Positions 11,215 through 36,402 of a DNA stretch of 64,000 nt are shown one piece after another. Location: positions 1,152,001 to 1,216,000 of the forward strand of contig CAXXDN010000002.1 in assembly GCA_963667465.2 (NCBI GenBank), written 5' to 3'. The DNA comes from Dehalococcoidia bacterium. GTDB lineage: Bacteria > Chloroflexota > Dehalococcoidia > UBA2979. The notes under the pieces were generated by a model. That model was not told the DNA's origin. It did not search any database and worked only from the letters and a program-made list of their open reading frames with translations. How positions within the stretch are numbered: the first letter of the stretch is position 1; each line of letters starts with the position of its first letter. The position numbers and the translations under genes are program-made.

Positions 11215-12111
11215 CTAGCTCTCGCCCCCGTGCTCGGCGAGAACGCTCTCGATCATGTCGCGCAACTCGTTGCTCCGTGGGGCCAGGAAGAGGGTGTCCA
11301 CGACCTCGTTCGAGTTGGGCTCGAGGGTCGCGAAGTTGGGGTGGTAGCTGAAGCCAAGACCCATCCCAAACGCCTTCTCCTCAGGGATGTCCCAGTCGAG
11401 GATTACGAAGTTCACCTGGTCCTGGAATTCGAGTCGCAGCCTGTTCACGACAGGCCGTGCGCGGTTGCAGTTCGGTCACCAGATCGCATCGAGGAAGACG
11501 AAGGTCGGCTTCCCGTTCACCGGGAGGTACGCGCCCGTCGAGTCCACGTGCGTGCTCGGCGGCTCGTAGTCGGCCGCGACCAGCTGGGCTGGCCCGGTTG
11601 GGAAGTCGTAGCTCGGCTCAGGCGTCGCGGTCGGCGTGGGCTCAGGCGTCGCGGTCGGCGTCGGCTCAGGCGTCGCGGTCGGTGTCGGCTCAGGCGTCGC
11701 GGTCGGTGTTGGCTCTGGCGTCGCGGTCGGTGTTGGCTCTGGCGTCGCGGTCGGTGTTGGCTCTGGCGTCGCGGTCGGCGTGGGTTCGGGCGTCGCGGTC
11801 GGTGTTGGCTCTGGCGTCGCGGTCGGTGTTGGCTCTGGCGTCGCGGTCGGCGTGGGTTCGGGCGTCGCGGTCGGCGTGGGTTCGGGCGTCGCGGTCGGCG
11901 TGGGTTCGGGCGTCGCGGTCGGTGTTGGCTCAGGCGTCGCGGCCGGCGTCGCCTCCGCTATCGCCGTCGCGACTACCGCCGAGGGCGTCGCCGTCGCGGC
12001 GGGGGTGGTCTCGGCCTCGTCGCCGCCGGAGCAGGCCGCCGCAAGCGCCGCGCAGGCGAGGGCCAGCGGCGCGAGGTGCAGAACTCGCAGGTGACGCTGG
12101 ATGCGCTGCAT
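11215..12111 (-). CDS. Thioredoxin-fold lipoprotein selenoprotein 1 (UxxC; Sec TGA at 11476-11478) with long TPEPTPTA linker
   Basis: ORFs 11476..12132 and 11215..11448 are in one frame: ...[43 protein letters not shown]...YHPNF; lipobox LAAAC; downstream hairpin. Confidence 0.88.
11438..11456 (-). promoter_or_regulatory. Putative bacterial SECIS hairpin 1
   Basis: GGCCUGU-CGUGA-ACAGGCU at +20..+38 after the UGA; G at loop position 2. Confidence 0.75.
11615..11950 (-). repeat. 24-bp coding tandem repeat, about 14 copies, encoding (TPEPTPTA)n
   Basis: Units such as ggctcaggcgtcgcggtcggcgtg with synonymous variation. Confidence 0.95.
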
Positions 12112-12118
12112 CAGCACC

Positions 12119-12562
12119 TCAGGCTGGCTCAATCAGCTGGATCGCACCCGCCTCGACGAGCTGCACGCACTCGCAGGGCGTCATGCCGGGCAACGACTCC
12201 TCGCCGGGCTGCATCCGCTCGAGGCTGTCGGCGATCGTCGTGATCTGCTCGCGCGAGCGTTCCAGTTCCTCGATGCGGTCGTCGAGCTGCCCGACGGCCT
12301 CGGCGAGCGTCCGGCTGAGCACCGTGCGAATGTCCCCGCAGGTGCCATCGTGCGCAAGGCCGAGCACCGTGCCCATCTCTTTGAGCGACAGGCCGAGGCC
12401 GCGCAGCCCGACGGCGAGCCGCAGCGTCTCAACATGCTGCTCGCTGTAGTCGCGGTAGCCGTTCGCCCGTCGCGGGGGCGAGGGCAGCACGCCCTGCCGC
12501 TCGTAGAAGCGGATCGTGTCGGCGCTGAGGCCGCTGGCGGTGGCGGCTTGCTGGATATTCAT
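12119..12562 (-). CDS. MerR-family (metal-responsive type) transcriptional regulator
   Basis: MNIQQAA...[23 protein letters not shown]; Cys in GTCGD and C-terminal CEC. Confidence 0.9.
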
Positions 12563-12629
12563 CCGGTTCGCCCGCTCCCGTTCTCGTCGCCGTTAAGGAT
12601 ACGCCGCCACGAAGCGCCCGTGGCGCCGG

Positions 12630-13163
12630 CTACCCACCCTGGCCGGCGATCGCGTCATCGAGAAGCTCGCGCAGCGCCACCTCGCGCAGCGGGCCGAAGG
12701 TCGTCTTCAGCACATCGCCCGCGTCGGGTGCGACCATCGCGAAGGAGGGGTGTCGGCCGACGCCCAGCTCGCGGGCCAGGTCGCGCTCCGCCCCGATGTC
12801 GAAGTCGAGGATCACGAAGTTGATCCGGTCCTGGTATTCCTCCCGAAGCCCGTGCACGACGGGCCGCGCGATCGCGCAGGTCGGTCACCAGATCGCATCG
12901 ACGAAGACGAGCGTCGGTTTCCCGTTCGAGGGCACATAGGCGCCGGTGGAGTCGACCTGCTCTGACGAGTATTGGAAGTCGGCAGGCACGAGCACTGCCG
13001 GGCCCGTGGGGAAGGCCCCGTCCGCTGCGGCTGTGGCGGCGGACGACCCCGCGGATGGCGCGGGCGCGCCCTCGTCACCGCCGGAGCAAGCGGCGATCAG
13101 CGCCAGACCGGCGAGGAGCGCGAACACGATGCTGAGAGTTCGCGGGATGCTCATGCGCTCCAT
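12630..13163 (-). CDS. Thioredoxin-fold lipoprotein selenoprotein 2 (UxxC; Sec TGA at 12885-12887); start may be 13154
   Basis: In-frame ...KPTLVFVDAIW-TGA-PTCAIARPVVHGLREEYQDRINFVILDFD...RHPSF; lipobox LIAAC. Confidence 0.88.
12847..12865 (-). promoter_or_regulatory. Putative bacterial SECIS hairpin 2
   Basis: GGCCCGU-CGUGC-ACGGGCU at +20..+38 after the UGA. Confidence 0.75.
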
Positions 13164-13242
13164 ACCTCCCTCGCCCGGGGTGCTGGCTGCTGATGATCTC
13201 CGGGATCAAGGATATGACGCGACGCGGTTGTGCGGAGCGCGG

Positions 13243-13824
13243 TTATCCCTCGTAGCGTGCGATCAGGGCGTCGAGCATGCCGCGCAGCTTGGGCTCACGC
13301 TGCGCCCCGAAGACCCGCGCGATCACCTCGGCCGAGTCGGGCGCGATCAGCAGGTAGGCGGGTGTGCCCGAGTAGCCGAGCGCGCGCGCCAGCCTGTCGT
13401 CCTCGCGGTCGTCGACATCCAGCACGACGAAGTTCACCTGGTCCTGGTATTCCGTTCGGAGCCCATGCACGATGGGCCGCGCGATCTCGCAGAACTGTCA
13501 CCAGATCGCATCGACGAACACCAGCGTCGGCTTCCCGTTCGAGGGTATGTAGGCCCCCGTCGAGGCGACGCGGTCCTCGGGCGGCTCGAAGTCGGCGGCG
13601 ACCAGCACGGGAGGGCCGGTCGGGAAGGCGTAGCTCTCCGGCGTCGGCGTGGGCGAGGGCGGCGCCGTCGCCTCGGGAACGACCGTCGTGGCGGGAGTCG
13701 CCGTCGTGACGGCCGGCTGCGGCGTAGCCATGGACGCGGGTGCATCCCCACCCGTGCAGGCGGCGGCGAGCGCCAGCGACGCGAGGGCCGGGATCAGCAA
13801 GCGCCGTACGCGGGATTGCAGCAT
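13243..13824 (-). CDS. Thioredoxin-fold lipoprotein selenoprotein 3 (UxxC; Sec TGA at 13498-13500)
   Basis: In-frame ...KPTLVFVDAIW-TGA-QFCEIARPIVHGLRTEYQDQVNFVVLDVD...GTPAY; lipobox LAAAC; ATG 13824 lies 7 nt after TATGAT. Confidence 0.88.
13460..13478 (-). promoter_or_regulatory. Putative bacterial SECIS hairpin 3
   Basis: GGCCCAU-CGUGC-AUGGGCU at +20..+38 after the UGA. Confidence 0.75.
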
Positions 13825-13861
13825 CGACTCGATCATACTCCCCGGGGTGAGGCCCGACACG

Positions 13862-14500
13862 CTACTCGTACGTGCCTCCGGCCGTGTCGGCGTCCGCTAC
13901 GCCCACCTCGAGCAGGTGGCCGACGACAGTGCCGAGGGCGGTCGTGCGCACGATCCCGTCGCGGTCGATGAAGAACGTCGCCGGCAGCGCTTCCACGCCG
14001 TAGCGCCGCGCCACCTCGCCGCCCGCGGTGTCGAAGAGTATCGGGAAGGTCAGCCCGAACTCGTCGACGAAGGCCTCGGCCGCCGCCAGCGTGTCCTCCG
14101 GCAGCAGATTCACGGCGAGGATCACGAGGTCGTCGGGACCGCCTGGGCCGCGCTCCTCCCACAGTTCCTGAAAGTCCGGCAGCTCGCGGCGGCAGGGCGC
14201 GCACCAGCTCGCCCAGAAGTTCAGCACCACGGTCTTGCCTCGAAAGTCGGAGAGCCGCAGCGCGCCGCCGCCCAGCGCGTTCAGCAGGAAGTCGGGCGCC
14301 GGCCGGTCGACATCCACGAGCGCATCGTCCAGCAGCCCGATCGTGGCCCGCCGGGGCGTCGGGGTCGCCGTCGCGACGGCGGTCGCGGCCTCGGTTGCAG
14401 TTGCGGCAGGCTCGGGGCCGCCATCCCCGCAGGCGGCCGCGATCAGGGCCGCGCAGGCCAACGCCAGCAGACGGGCGTACGTCGAACGGCCTGACGCCAT
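13862..14500 (-). CDS. TlpA/ResA-like thiol-disulfide oxidoreductase lipoprotein
   Basis: [36 protein letters not shown]; lipobox IAAAC. Confidence 0.92.
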
Positions 14501-14524: not shown

Positions 14525-15121
14525 CTAGCCTCCGCCGCCGGCGTCCGCCTTCGCTACCCCCGTGGGCAGCAGGTTGCCGAAGACCGGGCCGTAGTTTACC
14601 GAGCGCACCACGCCCTCGCGGTCGATGAAGAACGTCGCCGGCAGCCCGCGCACACGGTAGCGGTCCGCCACCGCGCCGTCCGCGGTGTCGAACAGCACGG
14701 GGAAGGTGAACCCGTTGCCCTCGATGAACTCGCGGGCGTCGGTCATCGTGTCCTGCACGAGGAAGTCGAGCGCGATCATCACGAGGTCGTCCGAGCCGTC
14801 CTCGCCGCGCTCGTCCCAGAGCTCTTGGAACTCAGGCATCTCCTCGCGGCAGGGGGGGCACCAGCTCGCCCAGAAGTTGAGCACCACCGTCTTGCCCCGG
14901 AAGTCGGCGAGCATGACGGTCTCGCCCTCGAGGTTCGTCAGCGCGAAGTTCGGCGCTGGCTCGTCGATGGCCACCGTGAGGTCGTCGAGCAGGCCGATCT
15001 CGACCATCACTCCCTCGCTCGTCATGCCCTCCTCGACGCCCGGGTCGATGAACTCGCGTTGCACGAACAGCGCGGCGATCACCGCCACGATCAGGAAGGC
15101 GAGCCTTCTGTTCTCCTGCAT
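14525..15121 (-). CDS. TlpA/ResA-like thiol-disulfide oxidoreductase, membrane-anchored
   Basis: N-terminal TM; [30 protein letters not shown]; ATG 15121 with SD. Confidence 0.92.
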
Positions 15122-15168
15122 TACCGCACCCCTTCCTGATGACGCCCGCAGCACGGGCGCAGCCCCCG

Positions 15169-16527
<1,359 letters not shown>

Positions 16528-34203: not shown

Positions 34204-36402
34204 TTATCGGCGGCGTAAACGCGGTGTTTCGCGCGATACGGCAGCGGCCGCGACCGGCTCGACGCGGACGGCGGCGAACTTCAGATCGGGCTGCTTCGAG
34301 CGTGCGTCGATGGCCTCGCTGGTGGCGTTGTTGGTGATGGCGTGGCGGTTGAAGATCTCGCCCCAGTGGAACGGCGCGAAGACCGCGCCGCTGCGGATCC
34401 TGTCGGTGACCCGCGCCTTCACCTCAAGGCTGCCGCGCCGCGAGATGACTCGCACGAGCTGCTGGTCGCGCACGCCGAGGTCATCGGCGTCGTCGGGGTG
34501 CACCTCGAGGAACGGTTCGTGCTCGCTGCGCAGCAGCTTCGGCACCTTGCCGGTGCGGGTCATCGTGTGCCACTGGTCCTTGACGCGCCCGGTGAGCAGC
34601 GCCAGGGGGTACTCGTCGCTGAGGATCTCCGCCGGCGTGCGAAACGCCGGCGCGTGGAAGCGCGCGCGGCCGTCGGGCGTGGGGAAGCGGCCCGCCCCGA
34701 ACAGCCTCGGCGACGGCGCGACCTTGCCCGTGGCGTCGGCCAGCACCGAGCCCTCGGGGTGTGGCCACTGGATGCCCGTGCCGGCCTGCCGCAGCAGGTC
34801 GTAGCTGACCCCGGTGATGTCGAGGTCGCGCCCGCGTGTCAGCTCGCGGTACTCGTCGAAGATTGCCTCGGTGTCCTCGTAGTCGAAGTCGGCGCCGTAG
34901 CCGAGGGCTTCCGCAACGCGGCAGATGATCTGCCAGTCCGGCAGCGCGAGGCCTGGCGCCTCCCCGATCTGCTCGAGCAGGCAGATGCGTCGCTCGCTGT
35001 TGGTCATCGTGCCCGGCCGCTCGGACCACTGCGCGGCGGGCAGCAGTACGTCGGCGATGCGGCCGGTCTCCGTCGGGTAGTAGGCGTCCTGCACCACGAC
35101 CAGCTCGGCGCGCTGGAGCGCCGCCCGCACGCGCTCGGCGTTGGGGAGCGACGCGACGGGGTTGGTCGCGGCGATCCACACGACCTTCACCTCGTCGAGC
35201 TCGAGCGCCTCGACCAGCTCGATCGCGGTGAGGCCGGGCCGGTCGGAGATCGAGCCGGGCTCGAGGCCCCACGCGCGCTCGACCTCGGCGCGGTGTTCGG
35301 CGTTGGCGACCACGCGGTGCCCCGGCAGCGTCGTGGCGAGGCCGCCGCACTCGCGGCCACCCATCGCGTTGGGCTGGCCGGTGAGCGAGAAGGGGCCGGC
35401 GCCGGGCTTGCCGATGTTGCCCGTCGCCAGTGAGAGGTTGATGAGCGCGAGGTTCTTGTCGACGCCCGACGTGCTCTGGTTCGCGCCCATCGTCCACAGG
35501 CTCAGCAGCGGCCCATTCGTCGCGATGATGCGCGCCGTATCGACGATCTCCTGCGCGTCGAGGCCCGTCACCGACGACGTCCGCTCGGCGGACGAGCCCT
35601 CGAGGGCGGCTTCGACGTCCGCCCAGCCGCTGGTGCGGTCCTCGATGAAACGCTGGTCCAGGCCGCCCGCGAGCCGTACCTCGAACAGCAGCGAGAGGAG
35701 CAGCGCGACGTCGGTGCCGGGAAGCACGGGCAGGTGGATGTCGGCGATCTCGGCGGTGCGGGTGCGCCGCGGGTCGACGACGATCACCCTGACGCCGTCG
35801 CGGTCGGCGCGCTTCCGCGCCTTGATGCGGTCGAACAGGATCGGGTGACACGCCTCGATGTTCGCGCCGAGGATGAGGAACGTGTTGGCTGCCTCGATGT
35901 CCTCGTACGAGGCGGGCGGCGAGTCGGCGCCGAAGGCGAGGTTGTACGCAGCGACGGCGCTGGCCATGCACAGCCGCGAGTTGGTGTCCTGGTTGTTGGT
36001 GCCGATGAAGCCCTTCGCCAGCTTGCCGAAGAGGTAGTAGTCCTCGGTCATCAACTGGCCCGATCCATACAGCATGATCGAGTCCGGCCCGTGCTCGGCG
36101 ACGTTGCGGCGGATCGACTCCGCGACGCGGTCGATCGCCTCGCCCCACCCGGTGACGCGCGTGTGCGCGCCCTTGCGGTCGCGCAGCATCGGGGTGAGCA
36201 GGCGGTCGCCGGTGTCGAAGACCTGGCCGAGCAGCGCGCCCTTGGCGCAGAGCTTGCCCTTGTTGACGGGGTGGTCGGGATCGCCGCGCACCTCGCGCGC
36301 TACGCCGTCCTTCGCGCGCACGAGCAGGCCGCAGCCGGTGCCGCAGTAGCAGCAGATGGAGCGGCGCCAGCCGTCACCCGCCAGCAGGGGCAGCCTTGCC
36401 AC
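34204..36402 (-). CDS. narB: Assimilatory nitrate reductase, Mo-bisPGD catalytic subunit (NarB-like)
   Basis: CCYCGTGCG..LCAKG [4Fe-4S], DTNSRLCMASA, TGQPNAMGGRE, TGRVKDQWHTMTRTG, SKQPDLK. Confidence 0.88.
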   Translation of the reverse strand: MARLPLLAGDGWRRSICCYCGTGCGLLVRAKDGVAREVRGDPDHPVNKGKLCAKGALLGQVFDTGDRLLTPMLRDRKGAHTRVTGWGEAIDRVAESIRRNVAEHGPDSIMLYGSGQLMTEDYYLFGKLAKGFIGTNNQDTNSRLCMASAVAAYNLAFGADSPPASYEDIEAANTFLILGANIEACHPILFDRIKARKRADRDGVRVIVVDPRRTRTAEIADIHLPVLPGTDVALLLSLLFEVRLAGGLDQRFIEDRTSGWADVEAALEGSSAERTSSVTGLDAQEIVDTARIIATNGPLLSLWTMGANQSTSGVDKNLALINLSLATGNIGKPGAGPFSLTGQPNAMGGRECGGLATTLPGHRVVANAEHRAEVERAWGLEPGSISDRPGLTAIELVEALELDEVKVVWIAATNPVASLPNAERVRAALQRAELVVVQDAYYPTETGRIADVLLPAAQWSERPGTMTNSERRICLLEQIGEAPGLALPDWQIICRVAEALGYGADFDYEDTEAIFDEYRELTRGRDLDITGVSYDLLRQAGTGIQWPHPEGSVLADATGKVAPSPRLFGAGRFPTPDGRARFHAPAFRTPAEILSDEYPLALLTGRVKDQWHTMTRTGKVPKLLRSEHEPFLEVHPDDADDLGVRDQQLVRVISRRGSLEVKARVTDRIRSGAVFAPFHWGEIFNRHAITNNATSEAIDARSKQPDLKFAAVRVEPVAAAAVSRETPRLRRR

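Follow-up and report, generated by a model that had tools for sequence, protein, structure and literature searches.

Three in-frame hairpins with the features of bacterial SECIS elements in tandem thioredoxin-like genes of a Dehalococcoidia bacterium

Comparison of the three hairpins with known SECIS elements

The prototype of the bacterial selenocysteine insertion sequence (SECIS) is that of Escherichia coli fdhF. In this work, we analyzed a 64,000-nt stretch (the window) of contig CAXXDN010000002.1 from a Dehalococcoidia bacterium, in which three tandem paralogous genes of thioredoxin fold each carry an in-frame UGA followed by a short hairpin. Positions are given in window coordinates, and all hairpins and genes lie on the minus strand and are read in the coding direction. 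Our results indicate that the three hairpins are very probably genuine bacterial SECIS elements inside the reading frames of these genes; we infer that SelB binds them and that selenocysteine (Sec) is actually inserted at the three UGAs. The consensus of the bacterial SECIS (bSECIS), as given in PMC13188914, comprises a loop of 3-9 nt, a stem of 4-16 bp, a spacing of 16-37 nt, a minimum free energy (MFE) of -7.5 or lower and a G at loop position 1 or 2, with G or U as the usual next base; a sub-pattern in which the loop bases N1 and N2 pair is given there as "mostly" present and is not required.

The first-pass annotation of this DNA had described the hairpins in the interval 11438-13478, which corresponds to the outer ends of hairpins 1 and 3, and their sequences, the shape of a 7-bp stem with a 5-nt loop, the position at +20 to +38 and the 26-nt spacer were found on the minus strand exactly as claimed. 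Gene 1 (P0001, 11215-12132) has its UGA at 11476-11478 and hairpin 1 (GGCCUGU/CGUGA/ACAGGCU) at 11438-11456, where one extra C-G pair is possible at the base (8 bp); gene 2 (P0002, 12630-13163) has its UGA at 12885-12887 and hairpin 2 (GGCCCGU/CGUGC/ACGGGCU) at 12847-12865; and gene 3 (P0003, 13243-13860) has its UGA at 13498-13500 and hairpin 3 (GGCCCAU/CGUGC/AUGGGCU) at 13460-13478. The stem begins at +20, that is, 19 nt past the UGA, and the UGA-to-loop spacing is 26 nt in all three genes. In isolation, the 19-mers fold exactly into the described structure, with MFE values of -9.2, -10.6 and -9.2 kcal/mol and z-scores of -3.5, -2.2 and -1.9 for hairpins 1, 2 and 3, respectively. Thus, the SECIS-like placement and the loop G that had been proposed hold against the published consensus: the three hairpins lie directly 3' of an in-frame UGA and agree with it in loop size, stem length, G/U bases of the loop, spacing and energy. 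They share with described bSECIS elements the in-frame location just past the Sec-UGA, the short G+C-rich upper stem of 7 bp and the 5-nt loop with G-U at positions 2-3. Their loops stand 8 nt farther from the UGA than that of the fdhA hairpin of the same genome. They also differ from the known bacterial SECIS in the lack of a bulged U, in a C-G-U-G-N loop in place of G-G-U-C, and in that no pair can form between loop bases 1 and 5.

In the mechanism that we propose, once the ribosome is at the UGA, the complex of SelB, GTP and Sec-tRNA(Sec) would be tethered by the C-terminal domains of SelB to the apical part of the hairpin. The predicted contact consists of the 7-bp stem and the C-G-U-G-N loop, with G-U at loop positions 2-3, located 26 nt past the UGA, and SelB would then deliver Sec in place of termination, so that Sec would replace the first, nucleophilic Cys of a W-C-x-x-C redox motif. 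Because the stem is made of codons 7-13 past the UGA (R-P-V/I-V-H/N-G/R-L), peptide and RNA constrain each other, and the stem is maintained by unusual synonymous codons together with paired amino-acid and synonymous changes. The same hairpin might instead promote a SelB-independent read-through of the UGA by a near-cognate Trp or Cys tRNA, without Sec insertion, and this idea draws on the fact that the inserted residue is predicted from the sequence. We consider it very unlikely, given that the genome has kept selA, selB, selC and selD, that at least 10 other genes carry a TGA at known Sec positions of known families, that the UGA position corresponds to the redox-active Cys of thioredoxin and that the hairpin fits the SelB-type consensus. 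The Sec machinery was identified by (i) a tRNA-Sec of 77 bits, called by ARAGORN as tRNA-SeC with anticodon tca, (ii) SelA with an E-value of 1.7e-127, (iii) a SelB wing domain (E 3.5e-16) within a frame of 617 aa (at position 1010097 of contig C2 of the source genome, G000), and (iv) a selD gene that itself bears one TGA (position 106777 of contig C1).

Conservation of the stem among homologous genes

Homologues were collected from 400 genomes of the class, from a species-representative genome collection and from metagenome contigs. Identical 66-nt segments were collapsed, which left 66 distinct ones, 63 of them with TGA and three with TGC at the Sec position. Loci cut less than 63 nt before or less than 120 nt after the motif (e.g., L118 and L120), the frameshifted copy L119 and remote thioredoxin matches without the family motif (L033, L034, L037-L047, L096-L098 and L121-L147) were left out of the count. 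In the fixed register, 51 of the 63 TGA forms have all seven stem pairs, 10 have six, one has five and one has four; the forms with five and four pairs can adopt an alternative fold that contains a bulge and a GUU loop, and so does L090, which has six pairs. The three TGC forms (L056, L057 and L099) retain two, three and four of the seven pairs. For the hairpin folded alone, the median MFE of the Sec forms is -9.2 kcal/mol, with values of -7.5 or lower in 55/63, compared with a median of -0.5 kcal/mol in the TGC forms (0.0, -1.2 and -0.5 kcal/mol), none of which reaches -7.5. The Cys form L099 is telling, as its peptide RPVVHSL is close to that of the Sec forms and yet only 4/7 pairs remain (-0.5 kcal/mol).

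Covariation was assessed by explicit pair counts on 62 distinct rows, in which 96.5% of the cells of the 7-bp helix are paired. Double changes that preserve pairing occur at four pairs: columns 25:39 (C-G to U-A, 4 rows), 27:37 (C-G to U-A, 7 rows), 28:36 (G-C to A-U, 10 rows) and 29:35 (U-A to G-C, 4 rows). The number of compensated cells is 25, compared with 3.1 +/- 1.5 in shuffled alignments, none of which (0/500) reached the observed value, and sliding the 3' partners by 1-3 columns lowers pairing from 94% to 45% or less. Since compensated cells are not independent events, a quick IQ-TREE phylogeny of the 66 proteins was built, with U and the seven hairpin-encoded residues masked. On this tree, U-A at pair 5 appears in four separate places (the gene-1 clade, L093 with L104, L082, and L092), and A-U at pair 6 likewise in four (the gene-3 clade, L108, L069 and L110), L105 carrying the G-U intermediate. 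For pairs 1 to 7, at least 2, 7, 2, 1, 5, 6 and 1 state changes are required, a count that includes changes to unpaired states. A 2-bp lower helix (columns 20-21 with 43-44), paired in 85.5% and devoid of compensatory changes, was dropped from the claim. As a side observation, the three TGC forms occupy two separate places on the tree, among Sec forms; because of this placement the exchange between Sec and Cys must have occurred at least twice, each time without the hairpin.

The codon choice in the stem was examined next to that in the flanks. The Pro codon of the stem is CCC, CCT or CCA and never CCG (0/59), which makes up 73% of 203 flanking Pro codons; the Gly codon is never GGC (0/53 vs 51% of 160 flanking Gly codons); and the Arg codon is CGG in 54/62 cases vs 31% in the flanks. 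When synonymous codons were resampled from the genome codon usage with the peptides held fixed, the probability of obtaining 7/7 pairs was 0.019, 0.002 and 0.031 for the three genes. The compensatory pairs and the codon logic that the first-pass annotation had read from the three paralogues are confirmed: the synonymous Pro codon CCU faces AGG, which puts Arg in place of Gly, and AUC, which puts Ile in place of Val, faces the synonymous His codon CAU. Taken together, the codon resampling, the covariation among homologues and the loss of the stem in 3/3 Cys homologues indicate more than chance, and the hairpin is under selection, as had been supposed.

These data also bear on the view that the self-complementarity is a mere by-product of the conserved R-P-V-V-H-G-L peptide and of G+C-rich codons, devoid of any RNA function. 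The stem does lie wholly within conserved codons, and the G-U of the loop is part of a Val codon; moreover, the source genome has a G+C content of 70.7%, and a generic bSECIS-like descriptor matches 5057 of its 56496 TGA trinucleotides (9%), so that the presence of a hairpin is on its own weak evidence, the folding energies in context being equally unremarkable. However, no more than 0.2-3% of the resamplings with fixed peptides and codons typical of the genome reach 7/7 pairs, the otherwise preferred CCG and GGC are wholly avoided in the stem, four pairs covary to an extent that no shuffle attained, and L099 encodes nearly the same peptide with a largely dismantled stem. The codon and covariation tests thus largely refute this view, to which we now give hardly any credence.

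Several observations weigh against reading the hairpins as SECIS elements, or reduce the force of the tests above. First, because of the relatedness of the sequences, significance is inflated in the shuffle control, and 24 of the 63 inner branches of the tree are unsupported. RNAalifold on 63 sequences returned a weak consensus (-1.58 kcal/mol, 5 pairs), in which three of the five pairs match the hairpin (27:37, 28:36 and 29:35) and two are in a shifted register. Furthermore, while the 19-mers fold as the first-pass annotation had claimed, the energies of the 63-nt contexts are no better than those of shuffled sequences (z of 0.08, -1.16 and -0.43 for genes 1-3), and for gene 1 the MFE fold of the context omits the hairpin, which is contained in the centroid; since these context z-scores are not significant, thermodynamics alone does not single out the hairpins. 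The pairing of N1 with N2 in the loop is absent (C faces C in genes 2 and 3, and A in gene 1). No Rfam family matched at the gathering score at the hairpins, the scan of the whole window yielding two tRNAs only. In addition, the contrast with Cys forms comprises only three sequences from two clades. Finally, G31 and U32 of the loop are invariant in 63/63 homologues, but they double as positions 1-2 of a conserved Val codon, and for this reason their conservation is not creditable to RNA alone. In the 63-nt folds of gene 2 (12828-12890) and gene 3 (13441-13503), both on the minus strand, we also observed that UGGUG of the Trp-Sec codons pairs with UACCA, which belongs to the conserved E-Y-Q codons about 50 nt downstream, in a pairing that encloses the hairpin; both sides are nearly invariant, which places this pairing beyond a covariation test.

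The reading of the UGAs as Sec codons agrees with the proteins encoded across them. With TGA translated as U, the three paralogous genes give uninterrupted thioredoxin-fold proteins, each with a signal peptide at the start, and carry Sec219 (of the translated open reading frame) in the motif W-U-P-N-C in gene 1, Sec93 in W-U-P-T-C in gene 2 and Sec121 (of the translated open reading frame) in W-U-Q-F-C in gene 3. The G+C content at third codon positions (GC3) before and after the TGA is 0.97/0.83, 0.83/0.94 and 0.94/0.89 in genes 1, 2 and 3, and so remains of the coding type (0.83-0.97) on both sides of each TGA. In P0001, Pfam Thioredoxin PF00085 spans the U over residues 210-273 with 20.0 bits, under the cut-off of 23.5; in P0002 the same model reaches 31.5 bits (cut-off 23.5) over residues 77-166 and spans U93; and in P0003 both PF13098 (30.3 bits, cut-off 27) and PF00085 (28.4 bits) span the U. 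The family profile matches solved thioredoxins of the PDB (best E 5e-11), with the Sec/Cys column aligned to the first Cys of WCGPC. Among 17 public protein predictions that were retrieved, 13 end in ...AIW, truncated at the UGA, and the other four are full length with Cys there, their WC..C falling in the same alignment column as W-U-x-x-C. Least plausible of all is therefore the proposal that the TGAs are true stops of split or decaying genes and the hairpins pause or termination signals, since, even though those 13 predictions end at the TGA, it stands in frame in 63 distinct segments of homologues, always at one and the same place in the motif, coding signal and thioredoxin domain run across it, full-length homologues have Cys in its place, no U-run follows the stem and the full Sec machinery is present.

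Hairpins of other selenoprotein genes in the genome

The genome as a whole contains about 13 selenoprotein genes, including selD, fdhA, the three thioredoxin-like genes and one weak candidate. Requiring coding-type GC3 before and after a TGA left 123 candidates. Pfam domains span the TGA in a Prx-like W-U-G-V-C protein, a peroxiredoxin, a rhodanese-CBS protein and four paralogues of the UGSC family, and the CMD/AhpD-like C-K-W-U candidate is weak (E 6e-4, under the cut-off); besides selD and fdhA, the loci outside the window are L149, L150, L152, L154, L155, L157, L158 and L159. The fdhA gene bears one TGA (G000 C2:1517823, minus strand). A further gene resembling the formate dehydrogenase alpha subunit lies within the window (34261-36357, minus strand, equal to G000 C2:1186261-1188357); it has no in-frame stop, scores 551.6 bits to TIGR01591, under the cut-off, and is a non-Sec paralogue of the TGA-bearing fdhA located elsewhere on the contig. 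Rejected or set aside were L156, which consists of two adjacent genes, and L148, L151 and L153, which have no Pfam domain and were not counted.

The first-pass annotation had proposed that the three hairpins provide a lineage-specific consensus with which more selenoproteins could be found, and this did not hold. The covariance model R1, built from 63 homologues, recovered in the 2.97-Mb genome only its three source genes (E 2e-18, 1e-17 and 1e-13), the next match having an E-value of 0.7; this genome scan missed fdhA, selD, the four UGSC genes, the two peroxiredoxin-type genes, and the rhodanese and CMD-like genes. R1 mostly encodes the coding sequence of the thioredoxin-like family and was rejected as a general selenoprotein finder, which means that a SECIS model made from one gene family is not transferable to selenoprotein genes outside that family, not even to those of its own genome. 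The generic descriptor was rejected for the same use, as on its own it is too unspecific (9% of TGAs); it is of use only when combined with the two-sided coding filter, and it then retains 15 of the 123 candidates, 11 of which are either the three thioredoxin-like genes or supported across the TGA by Pfam or NCBIfam.

The comparison with the fdhA and selD hairpins pointed in the same direction, with different stems and with UGA-to-loop spacings of 18 and 33 nt vs 26 nt. In the fdhA hairpin (CGUCGCC/GGUCU/GGCGAUG), G-G-U-C-U occupies positions 22-26 when counting starts at the U of the UGA, which is also the register of E. coli fdhF, and the best candidate in selD is GGCGCAG/GUG/CUGCGCC. The hairpins of the other genes likewise differ in stem and spacing, over a range of 15-33 nt: the four UGSC genes have (G)CGUGGA/GUG/UCCACG(C) at 19 nt, the rhodanese and CMD-like genes 8-bp stems with GGC loops at 20 nt, the Prx-like gene CCUGCAG/GGU/CUGCAGG at 24 nt, and the Prx gene a less clear candidate stem with a GGC loop at 15 nt. 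What these hairpins have in common is a G+C-rich stem of 6-8 bp with a small (N)G[G/U] loop, often GUG. This common part does not go beyond the ordinary bSECIS consensus and, taken alone, lacks specificity.

Distant W-U-x-x-C genes of other Dehalococcoidia were also inspected. L035 and L036 have the hairpins UCCGUCC/CGUGU/GGACGGA and UCCGCCC/CGUGU/GGGCGGA, and L045 has GCAGCUC/GUG/GAGCUGC; the TGAs are at 1788 and 2216 (plus strand) in L035, at 1854 and 2996 (plus strand) in L045 and on the minus strand in L036. These genes have stem sequences of their own, and two paralogues among them differ by a compensatory change of U-A to C-G. GUG may be a SECIS loop typical of the class.

Host proteins, distribution and gene neighbourhood

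Both SECIS elements and thioredoxin-fold selenoproteins of the UxxC type are well documented. In the PF00085 and PF13098 rows of the selenoprotein table in PMC13188914, UxxC thioredoxin and thiol:disulfide interchange selenoproteins share with our three proteins the fold, the Sec as first residue of the CxxC motif and the existence of Cys homologues. Unlike the known UxxC selenoproteins, the three proteins are lipoproteins with signal peptide and lipobox, gene 1 has a long TPEPTPTA linker, and the genes occur as three tandem copies next to a MerR gene and to genes for TlpA-like redoxins. They resemble oxidoreductases of the TlpA/ResA/CcmG type in being membrane-tethered, extracytoplasmic and of thioredoxin fold, and two genes of that type lie directly upstream; unlike these, the three selenoproteins score higher against plain thioredoxin than against the DsbE and StoA models. 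None of the selenoprotein-specific models of NCBIfam matched P0001-P0003 at E <= 0.01, and the matches found in that collection are with generic thioredoxin, DsbE and StoA models only, all far under their cut-offs.

The signal peptides of the three proteins end in ...AAC, then S/TGGD, which we take to be a lipobox. The true start of gene 1 is probably the ATG at 12111 (MQRIQ...), and that of gene 3 is likely the ATG at 13836, because the homologues begin with MIE.MLQSR. In gene 1, a tandem repeat of 14 units of 24 nt (11615-11949, minus strand, 92% matches) encodes the TPEPTPTA linker that joins the lipid anchor to the thioredoxin domain, and a public relative (P0021) has a different repeat at this position. 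On these features, P0001-P0003 would be extracytoplasmic, lipid-anchored thiol-disulfide oxidoreductases that use Sec as the attacking residue.

In the class sample (400 genomes), strong matches are nearly all in the GTDB family of the window itself, and all have TGA. In the genome collection, 40 of 43 loci have titles of Dehalococcoidia, Dehalococcoides or Chloroflexi/Chloroflexota and an identity of at least 37% to the query; the remaining three are distant matches with 27-35% identity, and a Chloroflexi title is found for one of these as well. The nearest record, L011, is a Dehalococcoidia metagenome-assembled genome with the same three-gene order. The family thus looks confined, in the collections searched and apart from remote thioredoxin matches, to Dehalococcoidia-type Chloroflexota, and it looks unannotated. 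Dehalococcoidia are among the genomes richest in selenoproteins (46 and 49) in the BSepDB paper, where SECIS elements were predicted by bSECISearch (PMC13326102); BSepDB entries and supplementary files aside, none of the papers listed by a full-text search on selenoproteins in Dehalococcoidia describes the family.

It is tempting to speculate, although we hold it to be rather doubtful, that this is an uncatalogued family of lipid-anchored, exported W-U-x-x-C selenoproteins, present in two to three tandem copies by a MerR gene and restricted to Dehalococcoidia-type Chloroflexota in the collections searched, whose SECIS elements, like the ones in selD, in the four UGSC genes and in the distant W-U-x-x-C genes, share a class-typical (N)GUG(N) loop read by the SelB of the lineage. 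Leaving this aside, the three hairpins represent a mechanism already known from bacteria, clearly visible here but in no way exceptional. For annotation, they are of consequence in that 13/17 of the retrieved predictions miss the redox-active half of the protein, and recognition of the SECIS would restore three full-length exported thiol oxidoreductases per genome. They also illustrate dual coding, with a 7-bp RNA stem inside seven conserved codons that is kept by rare synonymous codons and repeated compensatory changes and that decays when Cys replaces Sec.

The three genes belong to a same-strand cluster in the order DUF3179, two TlpA-like redoxins, gene 3, gene 2, MerR regulator and gene 1, followed by two EamA transporter genes; genes beyond 16527 are unrelated. 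No CcdA/DsbD partner was seen among the neighbouring genes examined beside the cluster. At its head, the DUF3179 gene (15169-16527, minus strand, Pfam PF11376 with E 1e-102) has no TGA, even though DUF3179 figures as a selenoprotein family (UxxC/T) in a recent review. The two TlpA/ResA-like redoxin genes (13862-14500 and 14525-15154, both minus strand) match Pfam AhpC-TSA (E 2e-28 and 1e-29) and Redoxin and have no internal TGA. The regulator gene between genes 1 and 2 (12119-12562, minus strand) is of the MerR family (Pfam MerR_1 with E 1.3e-17, MerR and MerR-DNA-bind), and its presence hints at a control of the cluster by metal or oxidative stress.

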